Virus record (IMG/VR): IMGVR_UViG_3300035698_031273
Location: 32,001 to 96,000 of that record
Source of the DNA: a virus
Direction: 5' to 3' (one strand)
DNA: 64,000 nt
The notes under the pieces are model-generated. The model was not told where the DNA came from. It ran no database searches and worked only from the letters and a program-made list of their open reading frames with translations. The position numbers and the translations under genes were made by a program. Of this stretch, positions 17,480 to 55,400 are shown piece after piece. How positions within the stretch are numbered: the stretch's first letter is position 1; every line of letters begins with the position of its first letter.

Positions 17480-18580
17480 ATGATAAAAACCAAGATACGC
17501 TACGCATGTTTTTTAAATCATACGGGATATAGTCAAGCAGCACAGGATTATATCTTAGCTTTATATAATAGTGGCAAATATGATATTAAAATAAATTTAT
17601 ATGGAAAGCACCCTTCTAAATTAGCTATATCTGAGAAAACAAATAAATTATTTAAAAATATGATAGATAAAGATGATAATGGTCGTAAAATACTTATATA
17701 TCATTGTATTCCACCTATGCAAAAAAGAGCTGCTTCTTCTAAAATAAATATTGGTTTTGGTACTTTTGAGACTTTTTCACCTCCAGATGATTGGGTGTCA
17801 ATTCTTAAAAGAAATACGGCAGTAATTTTTCCTTCTAGTTTTAATAAAAAAATATTTAGTAATTTTTTGTTTAAAAAACCATGTTTTCATATTCCTCATT
17901 GTGTGAATACTGAATTATATAATGATGCAGTTGAGCCTAAAATTAATTATGACAAATTCACATTTTTATTTATTGGTAGTTGGAGGCTACGAAAGGGTTA
18001 TTCTGCATTACTTGAGGCATATTTTTCTGAATTTGATGTTTCTGATAATGTGCAATTACTTATAAAGACCGATAAGTCAGACCAATCTGAAAAATATATT
18101 TGTGAGTTAAAACGTCAATACAAATTAAAAAGTAAAGGATTACCATCTATTATTTTTGAAAAAGATATATTGGATGAAACAAAAATGCCGGGATTTTTAA
18201 AATCTGCAAATTGTTTAATAATGCCGACAATGGGAGAAGGCTTCGGTTTACCAGGTTTGCAGTGCATGTCTCTTGGAGTACCTATAGTTATAACAAATTT
18301 TTCAGGGTGCCAAGACTATGCTAATAACGACAGGGCAACAATGTTGGAAATAGAGGGATATAGACAATTTTCTAATTTAGATAGGATACCTCAATTTTCC
18401 AATAAAAAATGGGCATTTGTTTCTGTGAGACAAATAAAAGAAAAGATGAGATTTGTGGTAAATAATTATGAACAGGTAGAAAATAAAGCTAAAAATGCCA
18501 TACCGTTTGTTCATAAAGAATTTAATTATAATATCACAGAAGAAAAATTTTCTAGTATGTTGGGAATGTTTTATGATTAA
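17480..18580 (+). CDS. Glycosyltransferase, GT-B fold family 4
   Basis: TGYSQAA N-terminal motif, FIGSWRLRKG, and EGFGLPGLQCMSLGVPIVIT signature. Confidence 0.9.
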   Translation: MIKTKIRYACFLNHTGYSQAAQDYILALYNSGKYDIKINLYGKHPSKLAISEKTNKLFKNMIDKDDNGRKILIYHCIPPMQKRAASSKINIGFGTFETFSPPDDWVSILKRNTAVIFPSSFNKKIFSNFLFKKPCFHIPHCVNTELYNDAVEPKINYDKFTFLFIGSWRLRKGYSALLEAYFSEFDVSDNVQLLIKTDKSDQSEKYICELKRQYKLKSKGLPSIIFEKDILDETKMPGFLKSANCLIMPTMGEGFGLPGLQCMSLGVPIVITNFSGCQDYANNDRATMLEIEGYRQFSNLDRIPQFSNKKWAFVSVRQIKEKMRFVVNNYEQVENKAKNAIPFVHKEFNYNITEEKFSSMLGMFYD

Positions 18581-31163: not shown

Positions 31164-34100
31164 GTACATACAAAAATCTTATTTTATCTAATAATCCAAT
31201 TATGTATTGGAAACTAGATACTTCTGGACTCAGTAGTAGACCCCCTTATACGGAATTTTATGATGAAATGTCGTATAGAAATGGGGCTTCCGTAAGTCTT
31301 TATGGTTATGATTTTAGTTTGTATTCAGATGACAGTCTTGTTCTTAGTGATAGCTCTGGCAAATCAATATATCAACCATTTGATGTAGCGGGAACACCTC
31401 ATTATATTACTGATATTAGTACTGAGTTTACTAATGTAGGAGGCACATCTGTATTGCAAGTTGGTGGGAGTATATTATATCCATTTACACTTGAAGCTTG
31501 GATTAAACCAATATCTCTTCCAACTGATGCTTCACAAGCATTAATAATGGGACACTATGATAGAACAGGTGTATCTTATACGGGATGTTCAGTGACTATT
31601 GATAGATGGGGAGTAATCCGGGCTGGGGCTTGTCTTCCTTGTGGAGCAGCAGGAACAATTGCTTCCTATGCTATTGCGGTAATAAATCATGTATATCATA
31701 TAGTTTTTGTTAAGAAATCTAATCTTACAACTGAACTTTGGATAAATGGGGTGTTAGAAGGTACAGGTTCTCATCTTTCTCCCTCGGGAACAATTAATTC
31801 AGGTTTTCGTATTTTTTATGGTCCCTGGTATTCTACTTTTAGTGGTTATATAGATGAGGTTGTTGCTTATAATCATGTTTTAGATGAAACTGATATTCAA
31901 GAACATTATGAATTGGGAACTACCTCCGGGATATTGCCAGATATTATTGACACAACTGGTGAAAGTGTTTATACAGAATATGGAAGAATTACAGGAGGAA
32001 AATGGTATTATTCTCAAAATAAACCTGGTTCGAGATGGTATGACACAGTAGATAATTCTATGGGATGGACAGTAGATATGGGACTACAAATAGTAGATAT
32101 AAATAATAGTATGATTTTGTCTACTAATGAACCTCCAAATGGGATGGGAGTATATATTAACGATGGCACTAGGCAGGAAAGCATATATTTTTTCCAACAA
32201 GAAATTTATTTTACGAATGCTAAAGAAAAAGTATTATATGATGCAACTCAACTTTCAGATTATTTTGTAGTGGGAAAAGGTGATAGTTTAAAACTTTTTG
32301 CTAGACCAGATGGAGAAACATTATGGCAAGAACTTGCTAGTGTTGGGTTTTCTACATCCGCTACTAATGAAGGGAATGCTAGTCGTCCAAGAATCACACA
32401 ATCAATTTCTAATGAATTATATGCTGTTTGGCAAGAAGATGTAACAGTTTCTTCCCATATTTATTATTCTGTTTTTGGTGATAGTTGGGAAAATCCTGTT
32501 GCTATAGTTAAAAATAGTTATGGGGTATCTAATCCAGATATTGTTATTGATGCAAATAATGTTATTTCTATTGTTTATGAAAGCAAACAGATTGATTATA
32601 CAAATATTGGGTTTATAGAAAAAACATCATTAGGATGGTCTAACGAAGAATTTTTAACTGCTGAGGTCGGAGATTCTGTTTCTTCCAAAATTACTTTTGA
32701 TAGTCTTGGTAATTTACATGTTGTGTGGGAAGATCATCGTTCAGGAAAGCCAGAAATATTTTCTATAAAAAGAGATTCTGTTTCTTTGAAATGGTCTGAA
32801 CCAAGAAAACTTTATACTTCTCAATACGGTTCATTAAGGCCTTCTATATCATCTTATCTAGATGATATATTTGTATCGTGGACAGAAAAAGAGTCAGATG
32901 GTTCATCTAAAATTTTAGCATTATCTTTTGATGCTACAACTTTGGTATCAACGGATGCTATAACTATACCTTCTTTCTATTTTCGTGCAGACAATTCTTG
33001 TGTTGTTGCTAATATGTCAGGTAGTGTATTTATTTGTTGGGTAGATGAGAGGGATCAATTTGATGAGATTTATTTTAGAATAATTATAAAAACATTTGAT
33101 CCTTCTGATATGTCTCCGAGATTAGTACCTCAAAGCTCAGTTATGTTAGTAACTAATGGACATGGTGCAGCGGATCATCCTGACATATCGGAATCTACTA
33201 GTACTGGAGATATTTATATAGTATGGGAAGATTATTTTGATGCAGAAAATGATCCAAGTGCATTATCTAATCCATATATTGCTGAGACATTTAAACAAAG
33301 AAAAACTATATTTTTGGCTTGGTATGATAGTAGTGAAGGTATTTTATATTCTAGTGGGCAAGGTTATTCTGATACAAAAGTTATTTTTGACGATATGAGG
33401 AGTGCTACATTTCCAGCAATTCCACAGAATTTTTCTAGTAACGTACCCATTATATATCAAATGATGTCTCAATATGAAAATGATTGGTTATATACTAAGG
33501 AAAGATTTGAAAGAATAGGTTATTTTGGTTGTGATACTCCTCTTACTGAGGAATTTAATGTAACCAACAATGTTGATTATGGAGTTAGGAATGACTGGAC
33601 AATTTCCAGAGTATTAGAAGGAAAGGAAATTAGATTTGGTGATTTTTCTAATTCATTAACGGGACAGTTATTATTTACCCATTTTAAGTATTATACGGAT
33701 GATGCAGTAGAACCTTTGGTTATTAAGGAGATTTCAAGTGATCAATTTAAAATTGGTGCCTTGGATGTGTTTGATGGTGCAGTCAGTAATGCTGGAGATG
33801 CATGGCTAGTGGGTCCATGTGGAGTATTATTCTTTTCTAATAGTAATGGAACTATATTTCTTGTTGGTACTCAAGCCGAAGTAGACGATTTAGGTGCTGC
33901 AGTTGTTGGCCCTGAGGAGGGAATACGGGCACTTGCTTTTGATAAAAATAATATAATGTTTTTGGGTTGTAAAACAGGTCTGTATTATTCTATTAATCAT
34001 TATGGTGGTTTTTATAAATTAAGTGGTCCTCCCGACAATATAACTACAGTTGCTTTTGACAAAAACAATAAATTGTTATTGGGAACTGACGATCAGGGAG

Positions 34101-43511: not shown

Positions 43512-45395
43512 ATGGTGGATGAGTTAATAATGCCTACTGGAGAATATGATAATTGCGAATATGGTTACAGATGTTGGAATCTTATAAATAAATCAGTTGG
43601 TTTTTGGAAGATGGAAGATAATGTAGCAAATACTGATGTTACTGATAGTTTATATGATAATACCGGATTTGCCAGTTGCGATACAAATACTATTAGTGTA
43701 GATGGAAAAATAGGCAGATGTTTCAATTTTGATGGATGGTCGGTATATCTTTCTATGCCTCGGTGGGATTTTATTAATAGTGGATATGACTATTCTGTTT
43801 CTTTGTGGCTAAACGCAGAAATCATAACTGGTGGAACTATATGGCAACTGGCTATGGAAAGTGGGGAATATACAGGATTAAAAATTAGTGCCGCTGGGCA
43901 ACTTATTTATAGTGGTTTAGATTCCGATGGAGCACTTTTGGGGAATTATACTACCATAGTGGCTGATACTTGGTATCATGTTGTTTGTGCATTTGATTCT
44001 AGTTCGGGTGTTTCTTATCTATATGTTAATGGGGTATTATATGATGATTTTCTTCATGCAGTATTGGGAGCTAATACGTCTTATTTGTATGTAGGTATTT
44101 CTATGAGTGCCCCTGGAGTTATTAGCGATTATTTTAATGGGAAAATAGATGAGTTTAGTGTTTTCAATTATACTTTATCACAAGAAGAAGTTCTAGATTT
44201 GTATAATTATGGAAATGGAACAGAGGGACTTTTAGGGGGAGGTAGGTATTATCTTTATAAAGATGAATCTATAACGGTAAACGAAACCAAATCAATAGAA
44301 TTGATTTGTAATGACGACGAAAGTGCATCTGTTATTGTTGGTGATAATATACATTTTGTTGGACAAGATAATGGTAAATTAGTATGGGATATTGGAGGAG
44401 AGAACGAATATACTTTTTATAGTACTACTGCAAAAGAGGGAGAAGAAATACGGAGAAGATCTGGTGATCAAGAATTTGTGGTAAAATGGATTGGAATTGG
44501 TAGTCAATTATTTGATGTGATTTTGTATAATTCTGCTGTCAAACGGGCACAAATATTTGATATTAATAGTTCTTTTATACCAACTAAATCATCTCTTTAT
44601 CTAAGGAGATCTGGTTTAGATGTGGCAAGTTTTTTTACTATTAATGATTTTTCTCCTCTTATTATAGATGCTAGTAATTTTTTAAATTTACAACAAAATG
44701 GTTATAGACTTATGTTGAACGATACGTACACTGACTATACTGGAAATGGATTTATGGAAGTGGTTAGGGGAAACTCAACCAGTAGATATCCAATTGCTGA
44801 ATATCCCATAAGAGCAACTAGTCCAGGATTGTTTTATTTGTATGTTAGAGGTCAAGCATTAATGGCAGAATATAAATTTGATGTTTTAATAGACAATAAT
44901 GTGGTTTCTTCTATTAGTGAAACTTTTGCATTCCCTTCAACTCAATGGAGATGGTTTAGTACTTCTTTTGTTATTCCCGATACTTTAACTCATACCCTTG
45001 GGATTAGGATGAATGCTGATGAAACAACTTTAGATCAGTTATATATATCAGCAATAGATGATCCTACTTTATTTGTTGATGATTATTCTGCTTCTTTATC
45101 AATTAGTCCTTTTGTAACTTTACATGCTAATTTATATAAGGTAGATAATGATTATAACATTTTAGAAAGATTTTTTATATATGATTGCAAAAATACTATT
45201 GAGGATATTCGTGGAGATGGGTGGTATAATTTTGATTTACAATTATTTGGTGATGATGCTCCCGATTTTACTGAAAAAGCAGCAATTGTTTTTTCAACCA
45301 GTGGAGACAATATGACTAATTATATTGTTTGGGAATTTTCTACTACTGAAGATGGTAATCCTTATTATTTATTACCATCGGCTGTAAAGGTGTAA
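43512..45395 (+). CDS. LamG plus CBM-like domain structural protein
   Basis: 627 aa. VGFWKME...GKIG..FNFDG...WYHVV...GKIDEFSVF (LamG); YTGNGFM...FYLYVRG...HTLGIRM...LDQLYI (CBM6/35-like). Confidence 0.7.
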   Translation: MVDELIMPTGEYDNCEYGYRCWNLINKSVGFWKMEDNVANTDVTDSLYDNTGFASCDTNTISVDGKIGRCFNFDGWSVYLSMPRWDFINSGYDYSVSLWLNAEIITGGTIWQLAMESGEYTGLKISAAGQLIYSGLDSDGALLGNYTTIVADTWYHVVCAFDSSSGVSYLYVNGVLYDDFLHAVLGANTSYLYVGISMSAPGVISDYFNGKIDEFSVFNYTLSQEEVLDLYNYGNGTEGLLGGGRYYLYKDESITVNETKSIELICNDDESASVIVGDNIHFVGQDNGKLVWDIGGENEYTFYSTTAKEGEEIRRRSGDQEFVVKWIGIGSQLFDVILYNSAVKRAQIFDINSSFIPTKSSLYLRRSGLDVASFFTINDFSPLIIDASNFLNLQQNGYRLMLNDTYTDYTGNGFMEVVRGNSTSRYPIAEYPIRATSPGLFYLYVRGQALMAEYKFDVLIDNNVVSSISETFAFPSTQWRWFSTSFVIPDTLTHTLGIRMNADETTLDQLYISAIDDPTLFVDDYSASLSISPFVTLHANLYKVDNDYNILERFFIYDCKNTIEDIRGDGWYNFDLQLFGDDAPDFTEKAAIVFSTSGDNMTNYIVWEFSTTEDGNPYYLLPSAVKV

Positions 45396-45397
45396 AA

Positions 45398-46663
45398 ATG
45401 ACTGATATAGGAAGAACAGATATTGTTAAGATTTCTAGTCCTGTATCATCAAATTATCTTCAATTTGGTCAGAGTATTTCGATGTGGGGCAATTATATTG
45501 CTGTTGGTGCTATAATGGATAGAAATGATGCTGGAACAAGAACAGGTGTTGTTTATTTGTATCAAAAAGATGGTACTTATGTTCGTAAAATAGTTCCATC
45601 TGATGGAGTGGTAAATGGCTATTTTGGAATTAGTGTTTGTTTGTATGAGGATTATTTGATTGTTGGATCTCATGGAAAAAACAATAGGGCAGGGGGTGCT
45701 TATTTGTATAAAATAAGTGACACTGGTTTTGAAGATATAGAAACATTTGGTGGTGTTGCAAATTCATATTTTGGATGGAGAGTAAAAATATATGATGGGA
45801 CAATTTTAATTTCAGCACCTTATTCTGAGGATACAGAAGGAAGAGCTTATGTATATACTTATGATACTTTAGGTATGACTTTATCTTATCAAATTGTTGC
45901 CTCAGATGCTAAGTGGGGAGATCGTTTTGGCTATGCAATAGATCTTTTGGGAGACAATATAATAATTACAGCACCATCTCAGGAATATCCAGCACCAGAT
46001 CCATCTGAAGATACTATATGGATAGACCCTTATACTCCTTATGAGGGACCAGATCCTCGAGCATATTTGTATAAAGTTAGTGATAATCTTTATGAAAGAA
46101 TTATTCGTCCATCAGTATTTCGTTATGATAGTAGATTCGGACAATCTTGTTCAACATATGGAGATACAATTGTAGTAGGAGAGCCTAAAGCAAGAAATTA
46201 TGAAGATAGGGAAGTAGGGGCAATAAATTTTTTCAGTATATCAGACTCATCTTATAATAAAAAAATATTTGATGCTGTTAACACTTCTTCTAGTTTTCTT
46301 TCTACGAGTAACTTTGCTTATAGGCTTTCTGTTACTTCTGATTATATCTTTGTTGGGGATACTGAGTATTATAGAGATGGTTCTATTATTGGTTGCGTAG
46401 CTGTTTTTGATTATAATGAAAATTTATTAGGAAGAATAACCACTAGTCAGGTTAGTGATGGTTCTAATTTTTCTTATGGTTTATGTTCTTTTGGTCCTTA
46501 TATAGGGATTACGGCTCCTCTTGATTCTTATTCTGGTTATACAAACATTGGTTCGGCTTTTATCGTTAGAATGGACGGGAGTATTTTTTTCCCTACTGAA
46601 ATAACAACATTGCAAATGATAGACTACTACAAAGGCTTAGGAGGTCAGTCTTCAGATGGATAA
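45398..46663 (+). CDS. Seven-bladed FG-GAP repeat beta-propeller protein
   Basis: Seven FG.S....G..I.VGA-type repeats (FGQS, FGIS, FGWR, FGYA, FGQS, FAYR, FSYG). Confidence 0.85.
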   Translation: MTDIGRTDIVKISSPVSSNYLQFGQSISMWGNYIAVGAIMDRNDAGTRTGVVYLYQKDGTYVRKIVPSDGVVNGYFGISVCLYEDYLIVGSHGKNNRAGGAYLYKISDTGFEDIETFGGVANSYFGWRVKIYDGTILISAPYSEDTEGRAYVYTYDTLGMTLSYQIVASDAKWGDRFGYAIDLLGDNIIITAPSQEYPAPDPSEDTIWIDPYTPYEGPDPRAYLYKVSDNLYERIIRPSVFRYDSRFGQSCSTYGDTIVVGEPKARNYEDREVGAINFFSISDSSYNKKIFDAVNTSSSFLSTSNFAYRLSVTSDYIFVGDTEYYRDGSIIGCVAVFDYNENLLGRITTSQVSDGSNFSYGLCSFGPYIGITAPLDSYSGYTNIGSAFIVRMDGSIFFPTEITTLQMIDYYKGLGGQSSDG

Positions 46664-49600
46664 AAATACTTGGCTTTTAGATTTTGACAGAACACATGCT
46701 TTTACCATTTATTCAGATTTTGATGCATGGGACGAAGATAACATAAGCATAACAATTCCTCCTGAAAGCGAAGATACACTTCATTTAACAAGATTTTCGG
46801 ATCTTCTTGGGCAAGAATTTTATCGTACAAAAATAACAGAGGATGGAGATTCTGAAATTGTAGAGTTGAATTTAGACGAAAGACTTATTACTCTTGTTGT
46901 TGATCAGAGTGGAAGTATGACTTGGAATGATAATTCTTCTTTACGTCATGAATTAGTTAAAGATATGATTAATGTTTTAAGTGCTACTTATCCTGGTAAT
47001 ATTAAATATAATCTGGTAGAATTTGGTGGGACACCAGTACAAATATTTTTCTATGGTATGGTGGTAGACTACAGTATAGAAGATTCAAATATTATTTCTT
47101 TAAATTCTCAAATATTTGGTGACGCTGATAATAATTTTGCTGGAGTTAGGGTGGTTAGAAAAATAGGTTCTTATCCAAATGATCCTCTTGATGGAGATAT
47201 TGTTACAGAAGGGCTTATGACCAAGGCATTAGATGAAAATTTAACTCCTGGAACAAGATATTACTATACATTATTTACTTATGATTCTAATTATGTTTTT
47301 AGTAATGGAATTAGAATTTCTGCTGTTCCAATAACAAGAGAAATACCGAGGGGAATTTCTCTTATAAATTATGATATTTATAAAGGAACAGGAGTTATAA
47401 GAGATGACAATACTGTTGGATTATGGCATTTTGATGAGCAGAAAGGAAGCATGGTATATGATTTTTCTGACTCAAAAATAGATCTTCTTTTGAATGGAAA
47501 TGAAGTTTGGTATCAAGCAGATCAGGTTGCTTCTGGAATTTCTGGTATCAGATTTAATGGAGTTAATACATATCTATATTCTGATGAATTAAATACTGAA
47601 CAGACATTGTCTGATGAAATTACAATTATGGCATTTATATTTCCTTATGAAGTTTATGATCCTTCTCCCGATCCATCTATCGATAATCCATCTGAGGACG
47701 AAATAAGTTATCCAATAGTTGTAAGACAAAATGTTAGTAGAATCAATTATGTTTTTTATATGTCAAATGATAGACTTGGTTTTTCTAATGGTGTAACTAA
47801 TGTAGTTTCTGATGAAGGAGTTCTTAGAGAAAATGAATGGAATCATGTTTCAGTAACATGTAATTTTTTAACAGGATTAACTATATTTTATGTTAATGGG
47901 GTTGATGTGGGACAAGAAGTTTTATCTACTATTGGTACTGCAGCTAATCTAATGGAACTTATGTATACTGATATAGGATACGATAGATATTCTAAAACAA
48001 CAAGTCTTCAATATTTTTGGGGCAGAATATGCGAAGTAAGTATTCATAATACTGTTAGAAATAATGATTATATTTTAAGTTATTCTGATAGCAATTTAGA
48101 TGACAATTATAAGATGATAAAATCTGAGAACGAATTAGATAATGGAGACAGATTAGTTCTTTTGAAGTATGCTATCCCTGAGGATTTTAATTTTTCAGGT
48201 GGTTCTGTAAAAATCATAAAAAGCGAAAAAAATATTCCGTCGTGGGATGGAGATCAAGATAGTACAATTTTATTATCGAGAAATCATAATACATATGGAT
48301 TTTTCTATACCACTGATACAGATGATTTTGCTTTAGGTGAGACATATTATTATAGGATTTATTCTGAGAATGTTTTGGGGAATGTTAGTTATCCTTCTGA
48401 TTCTCCTTCTATTGAGGTGCAAATTCCAGAAATTTCTCAATTAGATTATTTACCATCTATTTCTCTTACAAGTGTTCCGTCTAATTTAATTGTTAGACCT
48501 GGTAATACAAAGGCATATTTGGAATGGAATAATGGAATACAGGATGACGTATCAAGAATAAAAATTTATCATTCTTATAATTCCTATCCTATTGTTGATA
48601 CTAATGGAGAATCAAGTGGAACATTAGTTTACACTGGATTTTCGGGAGATAATGAATATGTTCATAGATATGTTGAAAATGACAGGAGATCTTATTATAC
48701 AGTATATTATTTAGATAAATATAAACGTCCTTCTGAGTTAGATGATGATATTTTATCTATAAGTGGAAGTGTGATGCCGACTCATGATAGCAATGACATT
48801 GGTATTCCATTGATGGAAGTTGAAAATGTTTATTATGAATTGGTTAATAATGATTCAATAAGTATTTCTTGGGAGCATCCTGTAGGGTTTCAAAAAGATA
48901 TAAGCGGATATTTAGATCAGAAAGTATTATTTTATGCTGCTGTTACAAATCAGTATGGAGTACTTATAGAAGATCAAATATCAGTTACGATGGAAATTGT
49001 TCCTAATATCTTGAGGCAAGATCAGGCAGAAGATGTTTTTATTAATAGAAATGCTTCTGATGTCACAGATAAAGATCTTTATCAATTTTCCGTTAGTGAA
49101 GATGAGACATCTGGTTTTGTTAAAGGTACGTTGACGATGACCATGGATTCTTATTTTCTCGGTGTAATTTCTGAAGCCTCTTTTTCAGTAAGGGTTACTT
49201 GTCGTATACCTGATAGTAGTGGCACAGGGGATTTATTTTCTTTTAAATCTGATTTTATAACTGTTAGTCTAGATAATCCATGGGATATAGAATTAATAAA
49301 TAGGGACAATTTGCAGGTAACTGAAAAATGTTATATTGTGGAATCTGGACAATCTAGTAAAGCTTTTGGAGGTCTTCTTTCTGTGGCTGAAAGGCCAGAT
49401 AGGTTGATTAGATCGTTGCAAACTTTTAATGGAATATATATCAGATCGGAAAACCCATTTACAGCACGTGCTATTTTGACTTATAGAGGAGATTCTTTAT
49501 CAAGAGAAATAAGTGTTGACGTAGCGGCCTGGGAATCTGAAATGAATCTTTGTGCTTATGCTTCTTCAGATGTGCAATATGAAGGACAGAGAATAAGACC

Positions 49601-52409: not shown

Positions 52410-55400
52410 TTTTAACTCAACGTATAAAATTAGATGGCAAACGCTCTTCAAGTTTTGTTATTACTTTAAGAGATGATGGAGGGGAGTTAATTACTTCTAA
52501 TGTATTATTGTTGGTAAGAGGATTTCTAAAATTTTCTTCATCAAGTAATACAAGTGAAAATGTCAATCAACAGGATGCTGTTAATTTATTAACGGAAAGA
52601 TCAGTAGTTTATCCCGTATTATTTGCAGAAAAAGAAGTTGTTTCTAGAGATGGTAAAGCTGTAATTACTTTATTGCCACGATCTGAAGATATTTTACAAA
52701 GTACTTCAGAGATATTATCCGGGTTAGGTTTAACTGTTAGTATTGAATCTGGTGAAACATCTAATGATACTGGTGTTGGAATTGGCAGTTTGGTAATTGT
52801 TCATGGGCAAGAGAGGGTACCATATAGCATAGAGGTTGAAATAACGGTTTTGGATGTAGATTATTATGGGCAGACGACTAATTCTGATGGAGAAAGCAAT
52901 GAAAGAGTGAGTAGATTTGCTGGCTTAGCTTTGCAACAAGGCAATAATGTTTCCATAGAATGTTATAGCGACATTGAATGGATACCAACAGTTTCTAAAA
53001 GGATATTTGATAACGAGGGGAGTGTATCTGAGATATTAAATATTATTGATAATATGTCGTATGAGGTGCCTTTTGGTGGATCTCCATTGTATGATGCTTT
53101 AATTGTTTCTTCTGAATTTTTGTCTGATAATAGCATTGATAATTTACAGAAGATTTTATATGTATTAACTGACAATGAAAGTAATCTTTCCTTTTATTCA
53201 ATTGATGATGCTATAGAACAAATAAATGCTATTGATGGACAGGGAAAGGTTCCATCTTTAATAGGAAATTTTTCAGTTGTATCTCCTATAACTTTGTCAG
53301 CCAAAGCAAATATTACAGATGTAAATAATCTTTTAAAAATAGCCTACATGACTGGTGGACAAAGTGTAACAGTTCTTTCTGAACAATATAAAGATGAATT
53401 AGTAAGTATTTTTTTGGGTCAAACCACGGGTTCTGTGGGTTATGGAGAATATAAATTTACTGTTGACTTAGAAACTCAGGTTACTTTAAATACTGTGTCT
53501 CTTATTTTTGTTATGCCAGAAAATACCTCAGTTGAATGGAGTATGAGCATTGGTACTGATGGATATAATTTTGTTGATGTTGATGGCACATATAATTCAG
53601 ATAGTAATGTAAATATGGAAGGGGTAAATGCCAGGTATATTAAATTTTCAGTAATATTTATAACTGGGTTTTTTTCAGTTGAAAGTTTAGATGATCCTTA
53701 TTATAGTCCGTCTTTGGCTAATTCTCCCCAGTTAGTAGAGTGTATATTTACATATAATAAAGAAAAAATATCTTATCTTATTCTTAATTCAGAAAATACT
53801 GTGTCTACTCCACAGAATGTTGTTCTTTGCACTGACGTAAATAATATTGATGGAATTAATTCAAGTCAAATAAAAGCTGGAGTAACTACTTCTGATAGTC
53901 ATAATTGGCTTGATTTTGATTTATCTTCTCAACAAGCCGTAGATCAGGATGGCAAAACTATTATTCCTGTTAGATTTTCTTCTAGTGATGATGAACTTTC
54001 TTCTGAGTATGCATATAAAATAGATAAATATGCTTATATGGTTAAATATGGTAGATGGAATTATGATGCCGTTGTTATAGTATATGATAGTAATAGTAAT
54101 GTAATTAATCCAACTTTGTACAAGGTGTCCCCACGTGATGGTTTGATAGTATTTGATTCTTATCGTAGTGAGGCACAACTTACCATAAATATTATAGATC
54201 AGGCAAAAATTAAACCAGGATTTAGATTTTCTAATGTTGATTCTTCTCAAACTATTAGAATAGATGGGTTGGGATATATGTATAATACTAATATTAATTT
54301 ATCTCCACCAGTGGAAAAATTGCCTCCAGAAGCTACGAATTTATTTGTTTTACCTGCAAAACCAGAAATTTATCAACCAATTTTTTCTAATTATACTTTT
54401 TATGATATCAATTTTGATCAGGAGGATACTACAGGACGTATTATAAAATGGTATATTAATGACGTTTATATTCCTTATTTAGATGACATAACTAAGTGGA
54501 ACGATATTACAGACCCTAATGATCCTATATATGAATATGTGTTTACCTTTACTTATGATGAAGTTCCATCTGGCAGAACTGTTGAATCTTATGCTAGAGA
54601 AAAGAAAGAGTCTCTTTTATATGTGGGAGATATGATTCATTTTACTATAAAAGTTACTGATGGACAATTATTTAGTCCATCTACAAAATCTCCTATTGTT
54701 ACCGTTGTGGAAGGACAGCCTATTGTATCGGTTGCTAAGATATGGGCTATGGATGAAGAAGGAAATCTATATGATCCATCAACAAGTGATGTTTCAGATA
54801 GACTTTCTTCTGATAGAAGTGCTGTTCTGGTTTATACTCTTATAAGTGATATTGATACTGATAGTTCTGAAATTATATGGTATGTAAATGAAGCTGAATT
54901 TAAAAAAGGAACAATTGTTTCTACTGAGAATATTGATAGGATTCTTAAGGGAGAGACAAATGAAGATAATGTTGTAGCACTTCGTATTAGTAATGAAATT
55001 TATGCTAAAATAATTCCTTATACTGGAAGTAAAGAGGGACAAGCAATAACTACTGATACTGTGGTGGTGAAAAATTCTTTACCAGAAATAACTAGTATTA
55101 TTTTTGCTAAAACTCCTAGAGCAGATGAGGACATGGTTCTTGTTTGGGAATTTTATGATTATGAAATAGATGGCTTAAGTGACGATGGGCAGTCTAACAA
55201 TACGAGAGTAGAGTGGTATAAATATGATGATGGTCTTCAAAAGTTTCAGTTAGTTACAGATAATAATAATATTTTTACTATAATACCTAACAGCACCAGT
55301 ACTGTTGGTTCAGAAATTCTTGAAGCTGGTCAGATATGGAAAGCCAGGGTAACTCCAAATGATTCTTTGGACGATGGAACTACAGTTGAGAGTTCTATAG

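Follow-up and report, generated by a model that had tools for sequence, protein, structure and literature searches.

The window analysed here is a stretch of 64,000 nucleotides from a virus (positions 32,001 to 96,000 of the IMG/VR record IMGVR_UViG_3300035698_031273). It contains two long genes, gene 1 and gene 2, whose products are denoted P0001 and P0002 (Table 1). The genes are adjacent on the same strand and overlap by 4 bp, with gene 2 in the −1 frame; translational coupling of the two products is proposed from the sequence. Residues 76 to 127 of P0001 (46,881 to 47,036) contain LITLVVDQSGSMTWND, a helix and YNLVEF in that order. In P0002, GGSPLYDAL begins at 53,075 (G224) and is followed by LTDNE, whose Asp is at 53,171 (D256), and then by LKIAYMTGG; a DxSxS motif is absent from this protein. 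An earlier note had read these segments as the two parts of a metal-binding vWA domain split between two genes about 6 kb apart. The translations of P0001 and P0002 agree with it in every motif and position. The 6 kb is the distance between the two halves of the domain, whereas the genes themselves adjoin.

Table 1 Features of the gene pair, in coordinates of the window
Feature	Position	Strand	Details and basis
Gene 1 (P0001, 1917 aa)	46656..52409	+	N-terminal region, vWA N-half, then Fn3-like, LamG and Kelch domains; ORF list, translation, Pfam
vWA N-half, aa 76-137	46881..47066	+	β1, DxSxS loop, α1, β2, β3; VWA_2, hhalign
MIDAS motif D83-Q-S85-G-S87	46902..46916	+	Invariant in 39 homologues and 18 phage loci
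Insert between β3 and α2	47067..52984	+	P0001 aa 138-1917 plus P0002 aa 1-193
Fn3-like domain, aa ~160-235	47133..47360	+	Directly after the N-half; AF2 β-sandwich, pLDDT 74-92
LamG (Laminin_G_3), aa 319-472	47610..48071	+	Pfam E 1.7e-9
Kelch β-propeller, aa 1553-1757 by Pfam	51312..51926	+	Kelch families, E down to 1.7e-19; PHROG matches
Junction GTGA	52406..52409	+	Gene 2 GTG start overlaps gene 1 TGA stop; sequence
Gene 2 (P0002, 1002 aa)	52406..55414	+	Conserved N-terminal domain, vWA C-half, weak F5/8-type-C-like region, further β-rich domains; ORF list, translation
vWA C-half, aa 194-342	52985..53431	+	α2, α3, β4, α4, β5, α5, β6, α6
Ser226, at the MIDAS Thr position	53081..53083	+	FGGS, α3 N-cap; invariant, hhalign
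Asp256, MIDAS Asp directly after β4	53171..53173	+	LTDNE; invariant, hhalign
T316-G-G-Q319 motif before β6	53351..53362	+	T316, G318, Q319 invariant; G317 at least 90%

Pfam VWA_2 matches residues 79 to 130 of P0001 over profile positions 2 to 52/53 of 107, scoring 26.1 bits when hmmscan was run on the whole protein (cut-off 27) and 30.7 bits when the genome was searched. When aligned by hhalign with canonical phage vWA domains the N-half occupies columns 6 to 55 (90% probability, E 1.5e-6), and its DxSxS motif falls on their DxSGSM. The half lies within the most conserved 62-residue window of P0001; the block DQSGSMTWND around the MIDAS motif is conserved, and 39 homologues show no variation at D83, S85, G86, S87, W90 and D92. 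In an AF2 model of the N-half alone the vWA part has pLDDT below 50 and is unfolded by itself. No shorter protein related to residues 66 to 140 of P0001 turned up in a search, and a single-gene full vWA domain closely related to the N-half was not found.

For the C-half, no Pfam vWA family matched P0002 or its 22 homologues (23 proteins) even at E ≤ 10. A sequence search of PDB chains with each half and with the P0002 family profile likewise returned no vWA match at E ≤ 10. By hhalign the C-half aligns to vWA columns 81 to 126, weakly when taken alone (26% probability); S226 coincides with the Thr of GST and D256 with the Asp of TDGE in canonical phage vWA domains. The AF2 model of the C-half has a mean pLDDT of 55 and only three strands, with D256 directly after the strand formed by residues 251 to 255; like that of the N-half it is of low confidence, the alignments having 18 rows. 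VIA-align of this model returned vWA folds in all of the top 50 rows (Z up to 10.2), matching over approximately 130 residues, a fold assignment that rests on a model of mean pLDDT 55. The matches cover the C-terminal two thirds of the vWA fold (for example Mac-1 I domain 178 to 319, Rpn10 56 to 192, vWF A3 52 to 187). The nearest ESM Atlas clusters are also all vWA (score 0.86), which we treat as a lead only. F223, G224, S226, D230, K249, Y252, D256, T316, G318 and Q319 are invariant in 23 P0002 homologues, and the half falls in the most conserved sequence window of the protein. A TGG before β6 is common in bacterial vWA domains. The strand-like segment NVSIECYSD (residues 181 to 189 of P0002) was considered as a substitute β1 and rejected, since the model shows it disordered and the structural alignments do not include it.

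Neither protein holds a complete vWA domain. HMMs of the halves found no C-half in P0001 and no N-half in P0002, and together with the secondary structure they exclude a full domain inside either; the 107-kb record yielded a single N-half (E 1e-31) and a single C-half (E 1e-65). In five complete relatives the match of the giant ORFs to VWA_2 is confined to positions 2 to 49 up to 2 to 62, whereas other genes in the same five phages match this profile over positions 2 to 107. Against five canonical phage vWA domains hhalign gave 39.4 for the N-half alone, 29.1 for the C-half alone and 56.7 for the two concatenated, the last as one colinear alignment with 94.9% probability and E 4.5e-8. All five MIDAS positions (D83, S85 and S87 of P0001, S226 and D256 of P0002) are invariant, and this holds across lineages that are only 25–45% identical overall.

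Co-folding of the two halves, proposed as a check by the earlier note, gave a median of 0.41 (runs 0.74, 0.30 and 0.41) against 0.00 for the best of three controls, which is in the weak band. The runs agreed in at least 66% of contacts, with partner pLDDT of at least 52. In calibration 58 of 80 solved complexes passed the mark, as did 2 of 110 mismatched pairs; at scores of 0.60 or below the passes comprised only 7 of the 80 complexes and both of these mismatches. Halves of a known fold can moreover pass because they resemble vWA structures already solved as single chains, which may explain the weak support obtained here. Because the co-folding signal is weak, assembly in trans is something that we infer, and it is well motivated.

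The two halves also occur within single proteins. Fused forms of 2400 to 3342 aa make up 29 of the 48 P0001 homologues. By blastp they carry the N-half at residues ~50–510 and the C-half at residues ~2000–2700, and the P0001-like part ends within a few residues of where the P0002-like part starts. The C-half follows the N-half by about 2100–2600 aa, thus the vWA domain is discontinuous in the fused forms too. The earlier note was right that the domain is split across genes, but it missed that single-chain relatives share the same discontinuity. Of 18 IMG/VR loci, 11 fused and seven split, every one has a single N-half and a single C-half; this strict co-occurrence extends to the window and to a further locus, L034. 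The latter came from a metagenome scan, while an alignment search in viral contigs found only P0001-like genes at 22–26% identity. A search for related loci with P0074 alone found none. The relatives are huge phages of 461–548 kb.

L034 represents a second split lineage, with the gene cut about 500 aa earlier than in the lineage of the window. Its gene 1 (1265 aa) has the N-half and its gene 2 (1489 aa) consists of Kelch and a P0002-like part, and carries the C-half (E 8e-39). The MIDAS residues are kept in this pair. Two fission sites within the vWA-containing gene have thus been found, one in each lineage. The split is common to a clade of 19 proteins (SH-aLRT 98) that includes 16 split homologues from independent assemblies. 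In the seven split IMG/VR loci the second gene has its own ATG 1–10 nt after the stop codon, in differing frames. On the tree the fused and split forms interconvert with at least three changes. The tree suggests that the fused, discontinuous-domain state came first; the ancestor was then probably a single protein of ~3000 aa, and the two-gene state would have arisen secondarily, by gene fission at two or more different positions within the insert.

The insert that parts the halves is, judged from the blastp coordinates of the halves in the fused relatives, one continuous stretch of about 2000 aa. That Fn3, LamG and Kelch domains follow the N-half, as the earlier note had it, is confirmed by Pfam and the AF2 model. 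The Fn3-like domain has a weak Pfam match to Pur_ac_phosph_N, and the Kelch propeller may extend to about residue 1900.

Fused homologues, co-occurrence, the colinear alignment, the C-half fold match and the invariant MIDAS residues identify the segments in P0001 and P0002 as complementary parts of one vWA/MIDAS domain, with a common origin with the fused proteins. As related phages have one protein of ~3000 residues in place of two, the domain here probably has to be rebuilt from two chains. The explanation that we consider likely is a single vWA domain, encoded discontinuously, whose ancestral gene was cut inside the insert and whose products restore the fold by fragment complementation. A single protein of ~3000 aa, as in many relatives and probably in the ancestor, carries in its β3–α2 loop some 2000 aa made up of Fn3, LamG, Kelch and other domains of adhesin type, and in the phage lineage of the window the gene would have been cut within this insert. 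The N-terminus of the gene 1 product would supply β1 to β3 and the DxSxS loop, and the gene 2 product α2 to α6, β4 to β6 and the Ser and Asp ligands. A six-stranded vWA fold with three strands from each chain would result, and its predicted MIDAS would combine D83, S85 and S87 of P0001 with S226 and D256 of P0002. The rebuilt domain would hold the two products together, which is the clamp envisaged by the earlier note. Physical reassembly and metal binding are predicted, and the domain may serve as a hub or adhesion site of a virion appendage in a huge phage.

A different closure of the fold can be envisaged, in which an N-half joins the C-half of a different protomer or heterodimer, giving domain-swapped oligomers or a chain, for example the hub of a trimeric fibre. 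Phage fibres are usually oligomeric, the gene has been cut at different places without loss, and the ~2000 aa between the halves, present even in the fused proteins, would allow swapping. The ends of the β3–α2 loop are, however, adjacent in a normal vWA fold as inferred from known structures, which makes intramolecular closure the simplest geometry, and no result here favours swapping over one-to-one closure; we regard such an arrangement as unlikely. It is also conceivable that the halves do not reassemble at all, being remnants of an old vWA domain disrupted by the insertion, each with another role or none. Such decay would fit a C-half that Pfam does not recognise, the low confidence of both isolated half models and the weak co-folding pass. 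It would not fit MIDAS ligands that stay invariant in both halves across such divergent lineages, halves that are the most conserved windows of their proteins, their strict co-occurrence or their colinearity with canonical vWA domains, and we judge it quite improbable.

Finally, the split might be unreal at the protein level: if sequencing introduced a frameshift, or if programmed −1 frameshifting occurs at the GTGA, the product would be one fused polypeptide. Gene 2 does lie in the −1 frame across an overlapping stop codon, one single-base indel would fuse the genes, and fused and split forms interconvert on the tree. Against this, no canonical slippery heptamer was seen at the junction, the 16 split homologues share the split across independent assemblies, and the seven split IMG/VR loci have start codons of their own in various frames. 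An assembly frameshift was rejected as the cause on the last two grounds, and we give the idea of a fused product here very little credence.

Canonical vWA and integrin I domains (vWF A1/A3, the integrin αM and α2 I domains, ITIH1, Rpn10, TFIIH p44, BatB) share with the phage pair the modelled fold of the C-terminal two thirds (VIA Z 7.3–10.2) and all five MIDAS positions (DxSxS, Asp, and a Thr that is Ser here), and the concatenated profile is colinear with theirs. These domains are contiguous, of ~180–200 aa and formed by one chain, whereas in the phage proteins ~2000 aa are inserted after β3 and here the parts are separate gene products, so the predicted MIDAS would be a two-chain site. The Gram-positive pilus tip adhesins with a vWA domain (RrgA, GBS104, EbpA) and integrin βI likewise nest domains around a MIDAS vWA in large surface adhesins; their vWA either bears short arms as inserts or is the domain that is inserted. 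The MIDAS of EbpA is reported to be needed for pilus function (PMC3419518). What sets the phage vWA apart from this group is that it accommodates several inserted domains, together about ten times as large as the vWA itself, and that it is split between genes. The phiKZ-like jumbo phages have split multisubunit RNA polymerase genes, which are gene-fission/fusion (Rosetta-stone) pairs. As in those pairs, we find one ancestral polypeptide, adjacent coupled genes, and both fused and split forms among relatives. The difference is that, with the cut inside the insert, a single small domain and its predicted metal site are what must be rebuilt across the chains, not a multi-domain enzyme. In Cav α2δ (vWA plus Cache; chain 7mix_D is among the structural matches) a MIDAS vWA is similarly interleaved with extracellular domains. 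The mature protein is of two chains, produced by proteolysis and linked by disulfides, with a contiguous vWA; the two phage chains are encoded by separate genes, and it is the vWA that is divided.

The annotation around the gene pair is sparse. PHROGs gave only Kelch families of unknown function for P0001 and no match for P0002 or 10 upstream giant proteins. The product of gene 43512 has a weak match to "virion structural protein" (E 7e-5); in some relatives the C-terminal part of this gene, too, is joined to the start of the P0001 homologue. Over the 10 upstream giant proteins and nine genes further upstream PHROGs found one weak head-tail adaptor match (E 1.8e-6), ~19 kb upstream of the window, with no other structural annotation, and no virion or tail annotation supporting a location for P0001 and P0002. 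A more speculative extension of the complementation model, possible but in our view less likely than not, is that of a composite two-polypeptide MIDAS in which a divalent cation would lock the junction of giant appendage subunits and chelation or a ligand would release it. More broadly, the appendage of this phage lineage might be made of domains that are freely cut at varying points and re-joined by complementation.

Few adhesion modules have been studied as thoroughly as vWA/MIDAS domains. To our knowledge none of these domains hosts an insert of ~2000 aa or is divided between two gene products, and a full-text literature search for split or discontinuous vWA domains found no paper. If the two halves do reassemble, they would constitute a natural two-chain MIDAS, a compact metal-dependent heterodimerisation module that might also serve as a part in protein engineering. 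The fused forms and the two different split forms together provide a clean natural experiment in how genes undergo fission within nested domains. Reassembly would also offer a starting point for understanding how huge phages assemble their giant, otherwise unannotated proteins.

The window comes from a 107-kb IMG/VR record of 22% estimated completeness and is AT-rich (~31% G+C), with plus-strand genes in long series, many of more than 1000 codons. The genes for P0001 and P0002 adjoin, with GTGA as the overlap sequence. An earlier note had proposed that one vWA domain is shared between their products, and every motif it named was located at its position in the two translations. P0001 holds beta1 to beta3 with DxSxS (the N-half, aa 76-137) and P0002 holds alpha2 to alpha6 (the C-half, aa 194-342). 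The two genes probably encode a discontinuous vWA/MIDAS domain with an insert of ~2000 aa; a later division would have left it on a pair of coupled genes, with fragment complementation restoring the domain and a two-chain MIDAS.

Coordinates of the gene pair, its domains and neighbouring features (window positions unless a locus or protein is named)
Feature	Position	Strand	Detail
P0001 gene	46656-52409	+	1917 aa
LamG	P0001 aa 319-472		Pfam
Fn3-like copies	P0001 aa ~500-730 (~48150-48850)		two
Kelch propeller	P0001 aa 1553 onward		Pfam
P0002 gene	52406-55414	+	1002 aa, GTG start
F5/8 type C (discoidin)	P0002 aa 350-416 (53453-53653)		weak matches
Gene 43512	43512-45395		two genes upstream of P0001 gene
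FG-GAP gene	45398-46663		between gene 43512 and P0001 gene
Glycosyltransferase genes	55411-58051		GT2, GT4, GT2; begin at P0002 stop
Further GT4	17480-18580		within giant-gene block
PhoH-like ATPase	L052:6369-7148		E 3e-66
DNA methyltransferase	L052:9865-10998		E 2e-55
Head-tail adaptor	L052:12910-13629		weak match, E 1.8e-6
L034 gene pair	L034:9971-18225		stop/start overlap TAATG

Pfam VWA_2 positions 2-52 of 107 align with P0001 aa 79-130, at 26.1 bits in hmmscan (slightly below the cut-off); the genome search scored the match at 30.7 bits. The earlier note had expected complementary partial matches to the VWA Pfams; P0001 gave its part, whereas no Pfam vWA family matched P0002 or 22 homologues at E <= 10. 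The residues D83, S85, G86, S87, W90, D92 and R97 are invariant among 39 P0001 homologues, and the DQSGSMTWND block is nearly unchanged across more than 50 proteins. The best-conserved 62-aa stretch of P0001 begins at aa 64-67 and corresponds to the N-half. An Fn3-like sandwich, modelled confidently, follows directly. We note that P0001-like proteins carry two further copies of this unit downstream, seen in relatives as secondary N-half HMM matches (aa ~507-602 and ~653-729).

In the P0002 family F223, G224, S226, D230, K249, Y252, D256, T316, G318 and Q319 are invariant, and the best-conserved 149-aa stretch, beginning at aa 209-216, is the C-half. The AF2 model of P0002 aa 150-350 is of low confidence (mean pLDDT 55, core 70-81). 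Residues 150-198 are disordered in it, and aa 207-337 run helix-helix-strand-helix-strand-helix-helix-strand-helix, with three strands only. Foldseek with the C-half model placed vWA folds in the top rows (E 3e-3 to 1e-1), and VIA-align of the candidates gave vWA folds in 50 of the 50 top rows (Z 7.3-10.2, ~130 residues aligned), including the 4fx5 vWA protein, ITIH1, TFIIH p44, integrin I domains, vWF A1/A3, Rpn10, BatB and Cav alpha2delta. The model always covers the C-terminal two thirds of its targets (Mac-1 I domain 178-319, alpha2-I 189-335, Rpn10 56-192, vWF A3 52-187), ranges that we take to leave DxSxS outside and to hold the MIDAS Thr and Asp. An ESM Atlas feature search with P0002 aa 178-345 returned vWA clusters only (0.86), a lead only. 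Directly after the C-half, weak F5/8 type C matches are seen in 5-6 of 23 P0002 homologues (best E 0.002); this segment may bind carbohydrate or lipid as a domain beside the MIDAS.

The halves were compared by hhalign with five canonical vWA domains encoded by complete, related huge phages (VWA_2 positions 1-106 to 2-107). The N-half profile aligned with columns 6-55 (score 39.4, 90%, E 1.5e-6) and the C-half profile with columns 81-126 (score 29.1, 26%, E 7e-4), pairing FGGS with GST and LTDNE with TDGE. Concatenation of natural pairs gave a single colinear alignment over columns 6-126, with the score raised to 56.7 (94.9%, E 4.5e-8); these columns place the domain break between beta3 and alpha2. 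In giant ORFs of five complete relatives the VWA_2 match is likewise limited to positions 2-49 to 2-62. The 107-kb record holds one N-half and one C-half, no more. Neither protein contains the complete vWA domain that the earlier note had named as evidence against a split: P0001 is without a C-half and P0002 without an N-half. Five 461-548 kb phages (L039, L040, L044, L046 and L047) also carry contiguous ordinary vWA proteins of 216-631 aa matching the whole VWA_2 profile, thus the split vWA is not the sole vWA of those genomes.

Single fused proteins of 2400-3342 aa make up 29 of the 48 P0001 homologues on the tree. Their N-half is near the start and their C-half ~2000-2700 aa in, the P0001-like end running contiguously into the P0002-like start. 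All 18 IMG/VR loci (11 fused, 7 split), on contigs that include complete genomes of 461-548 kb (terminal repeats in three), have one N-half and one C-half. This strict co-occurrence, together with the invariant residues, makes it very unlikely that the halves are relics without interaction. A frameshift, artefactual or programmed, is a very unlikely origin of the split: where the genes are separate, gene 2 starts at an ATG of its own, 1-10 nt past the gene 1 stop in varying frames, so the split is real, and these junctions show no conserved frameshift signal. The split is moreover shared across one clade (SH-aLRT 98; 19 rows: 16 split, 2 fused and 1 unclassified truncated protein) that contains almost all split forms. 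All other clades have fused forms, and at least three state changes are required. The tree, built from the N-terminal 640 aa with midpoint rooting only, suggests that the ancestor was fused and that fission came later.

A more distant family (P0074-P0079, ~1240 aa) has the N-half and lacks the C-half. In the one member whose gene context was seen (metagenome locus L034), gene 1 stops at the point corresponding to P0001 aa ~1400, past a conserved GGGS...EPL motif; gene 2 (1489 aa) encodes Kelch and the whole P0002-like part including the C-half (E 8e-39), MIDAS residues retained. The unit thus has two or more distinct cut sites, and both known cuts fall within the insert, never within a vWA half. 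Separately, in P0044, P0047, P0049, P0053 and P0059, fused relatives of ~3200 aa, the N-terminal ~260 aa share homology with the C-terminal part of gene 43512 (aa ~370-640, E down to 8e-39), so the module's gene boundaries shift at more than one place.

Co-folding of the halves had been proposed in the earlier note; with P0001 aa 60-240 and P0002 aa 160-348 it passed weakly (median 0.41 from 0.74, 0.30 and 0.41; best of three controls 0.00). Of 80 solved complexes, 58 reach the mark, as do 2 of 110 mismatched pairs; passes at 0.60 or under comprise only 7 of the same 80 complexes and both passing mismatches. Contact agreement between runs was at least 66% and partner pLDDT at least 52. As the halves have a known fold, the pass may stem from their resemblance to vWA structures already solved. 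Each half by itself folds poorly in AF2, which fits mutual dependence but also shallow alignments. Domain-swapped oligomers are an unlikely alternative arrangement of the halves. Under the favoured fragment complementation the vWA fold would be restored from P0001 and P0002, with D83, S85 and S87 of the former and S226 and D256 of the latter as MIDAS ligands.

The split phage vWA has the motifs of integrin-type MIDAS domains and is predicted to work alike, but those domains are contiguous, an implicit criterion of the family, and the phage domain is not. The vWA fold, domain insertion and gene fission are already known; a literature search did not find the combination of the three.

LamG, Kelch, FG-GAP, Fn3 and discoidin-like domains surround the split vWA, and the glycosyltransferase Pfam matches nearby have E 1e-12 to 9e-34. 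These domains and the adjoining glycosyltransferases suggest a surface appendage; PHROGs searches of P0001, P0002 and upstream genes gave no result that places the pair in the virion. The PhoH-like ATPase, methyltransferase and head-tail adaptor matches lie upstream of the window in its own record (L052). Beta3 is an antiparallel edge strand in the vWA topology, thus its end is expected on the face opposite the MIDAS, beside the domain termini. From this topology the insert and flanking parts would exit at the bottom and leave the MIDAS face free for a ligand, which may be a molecule on the host surface or a further protein of the virion.
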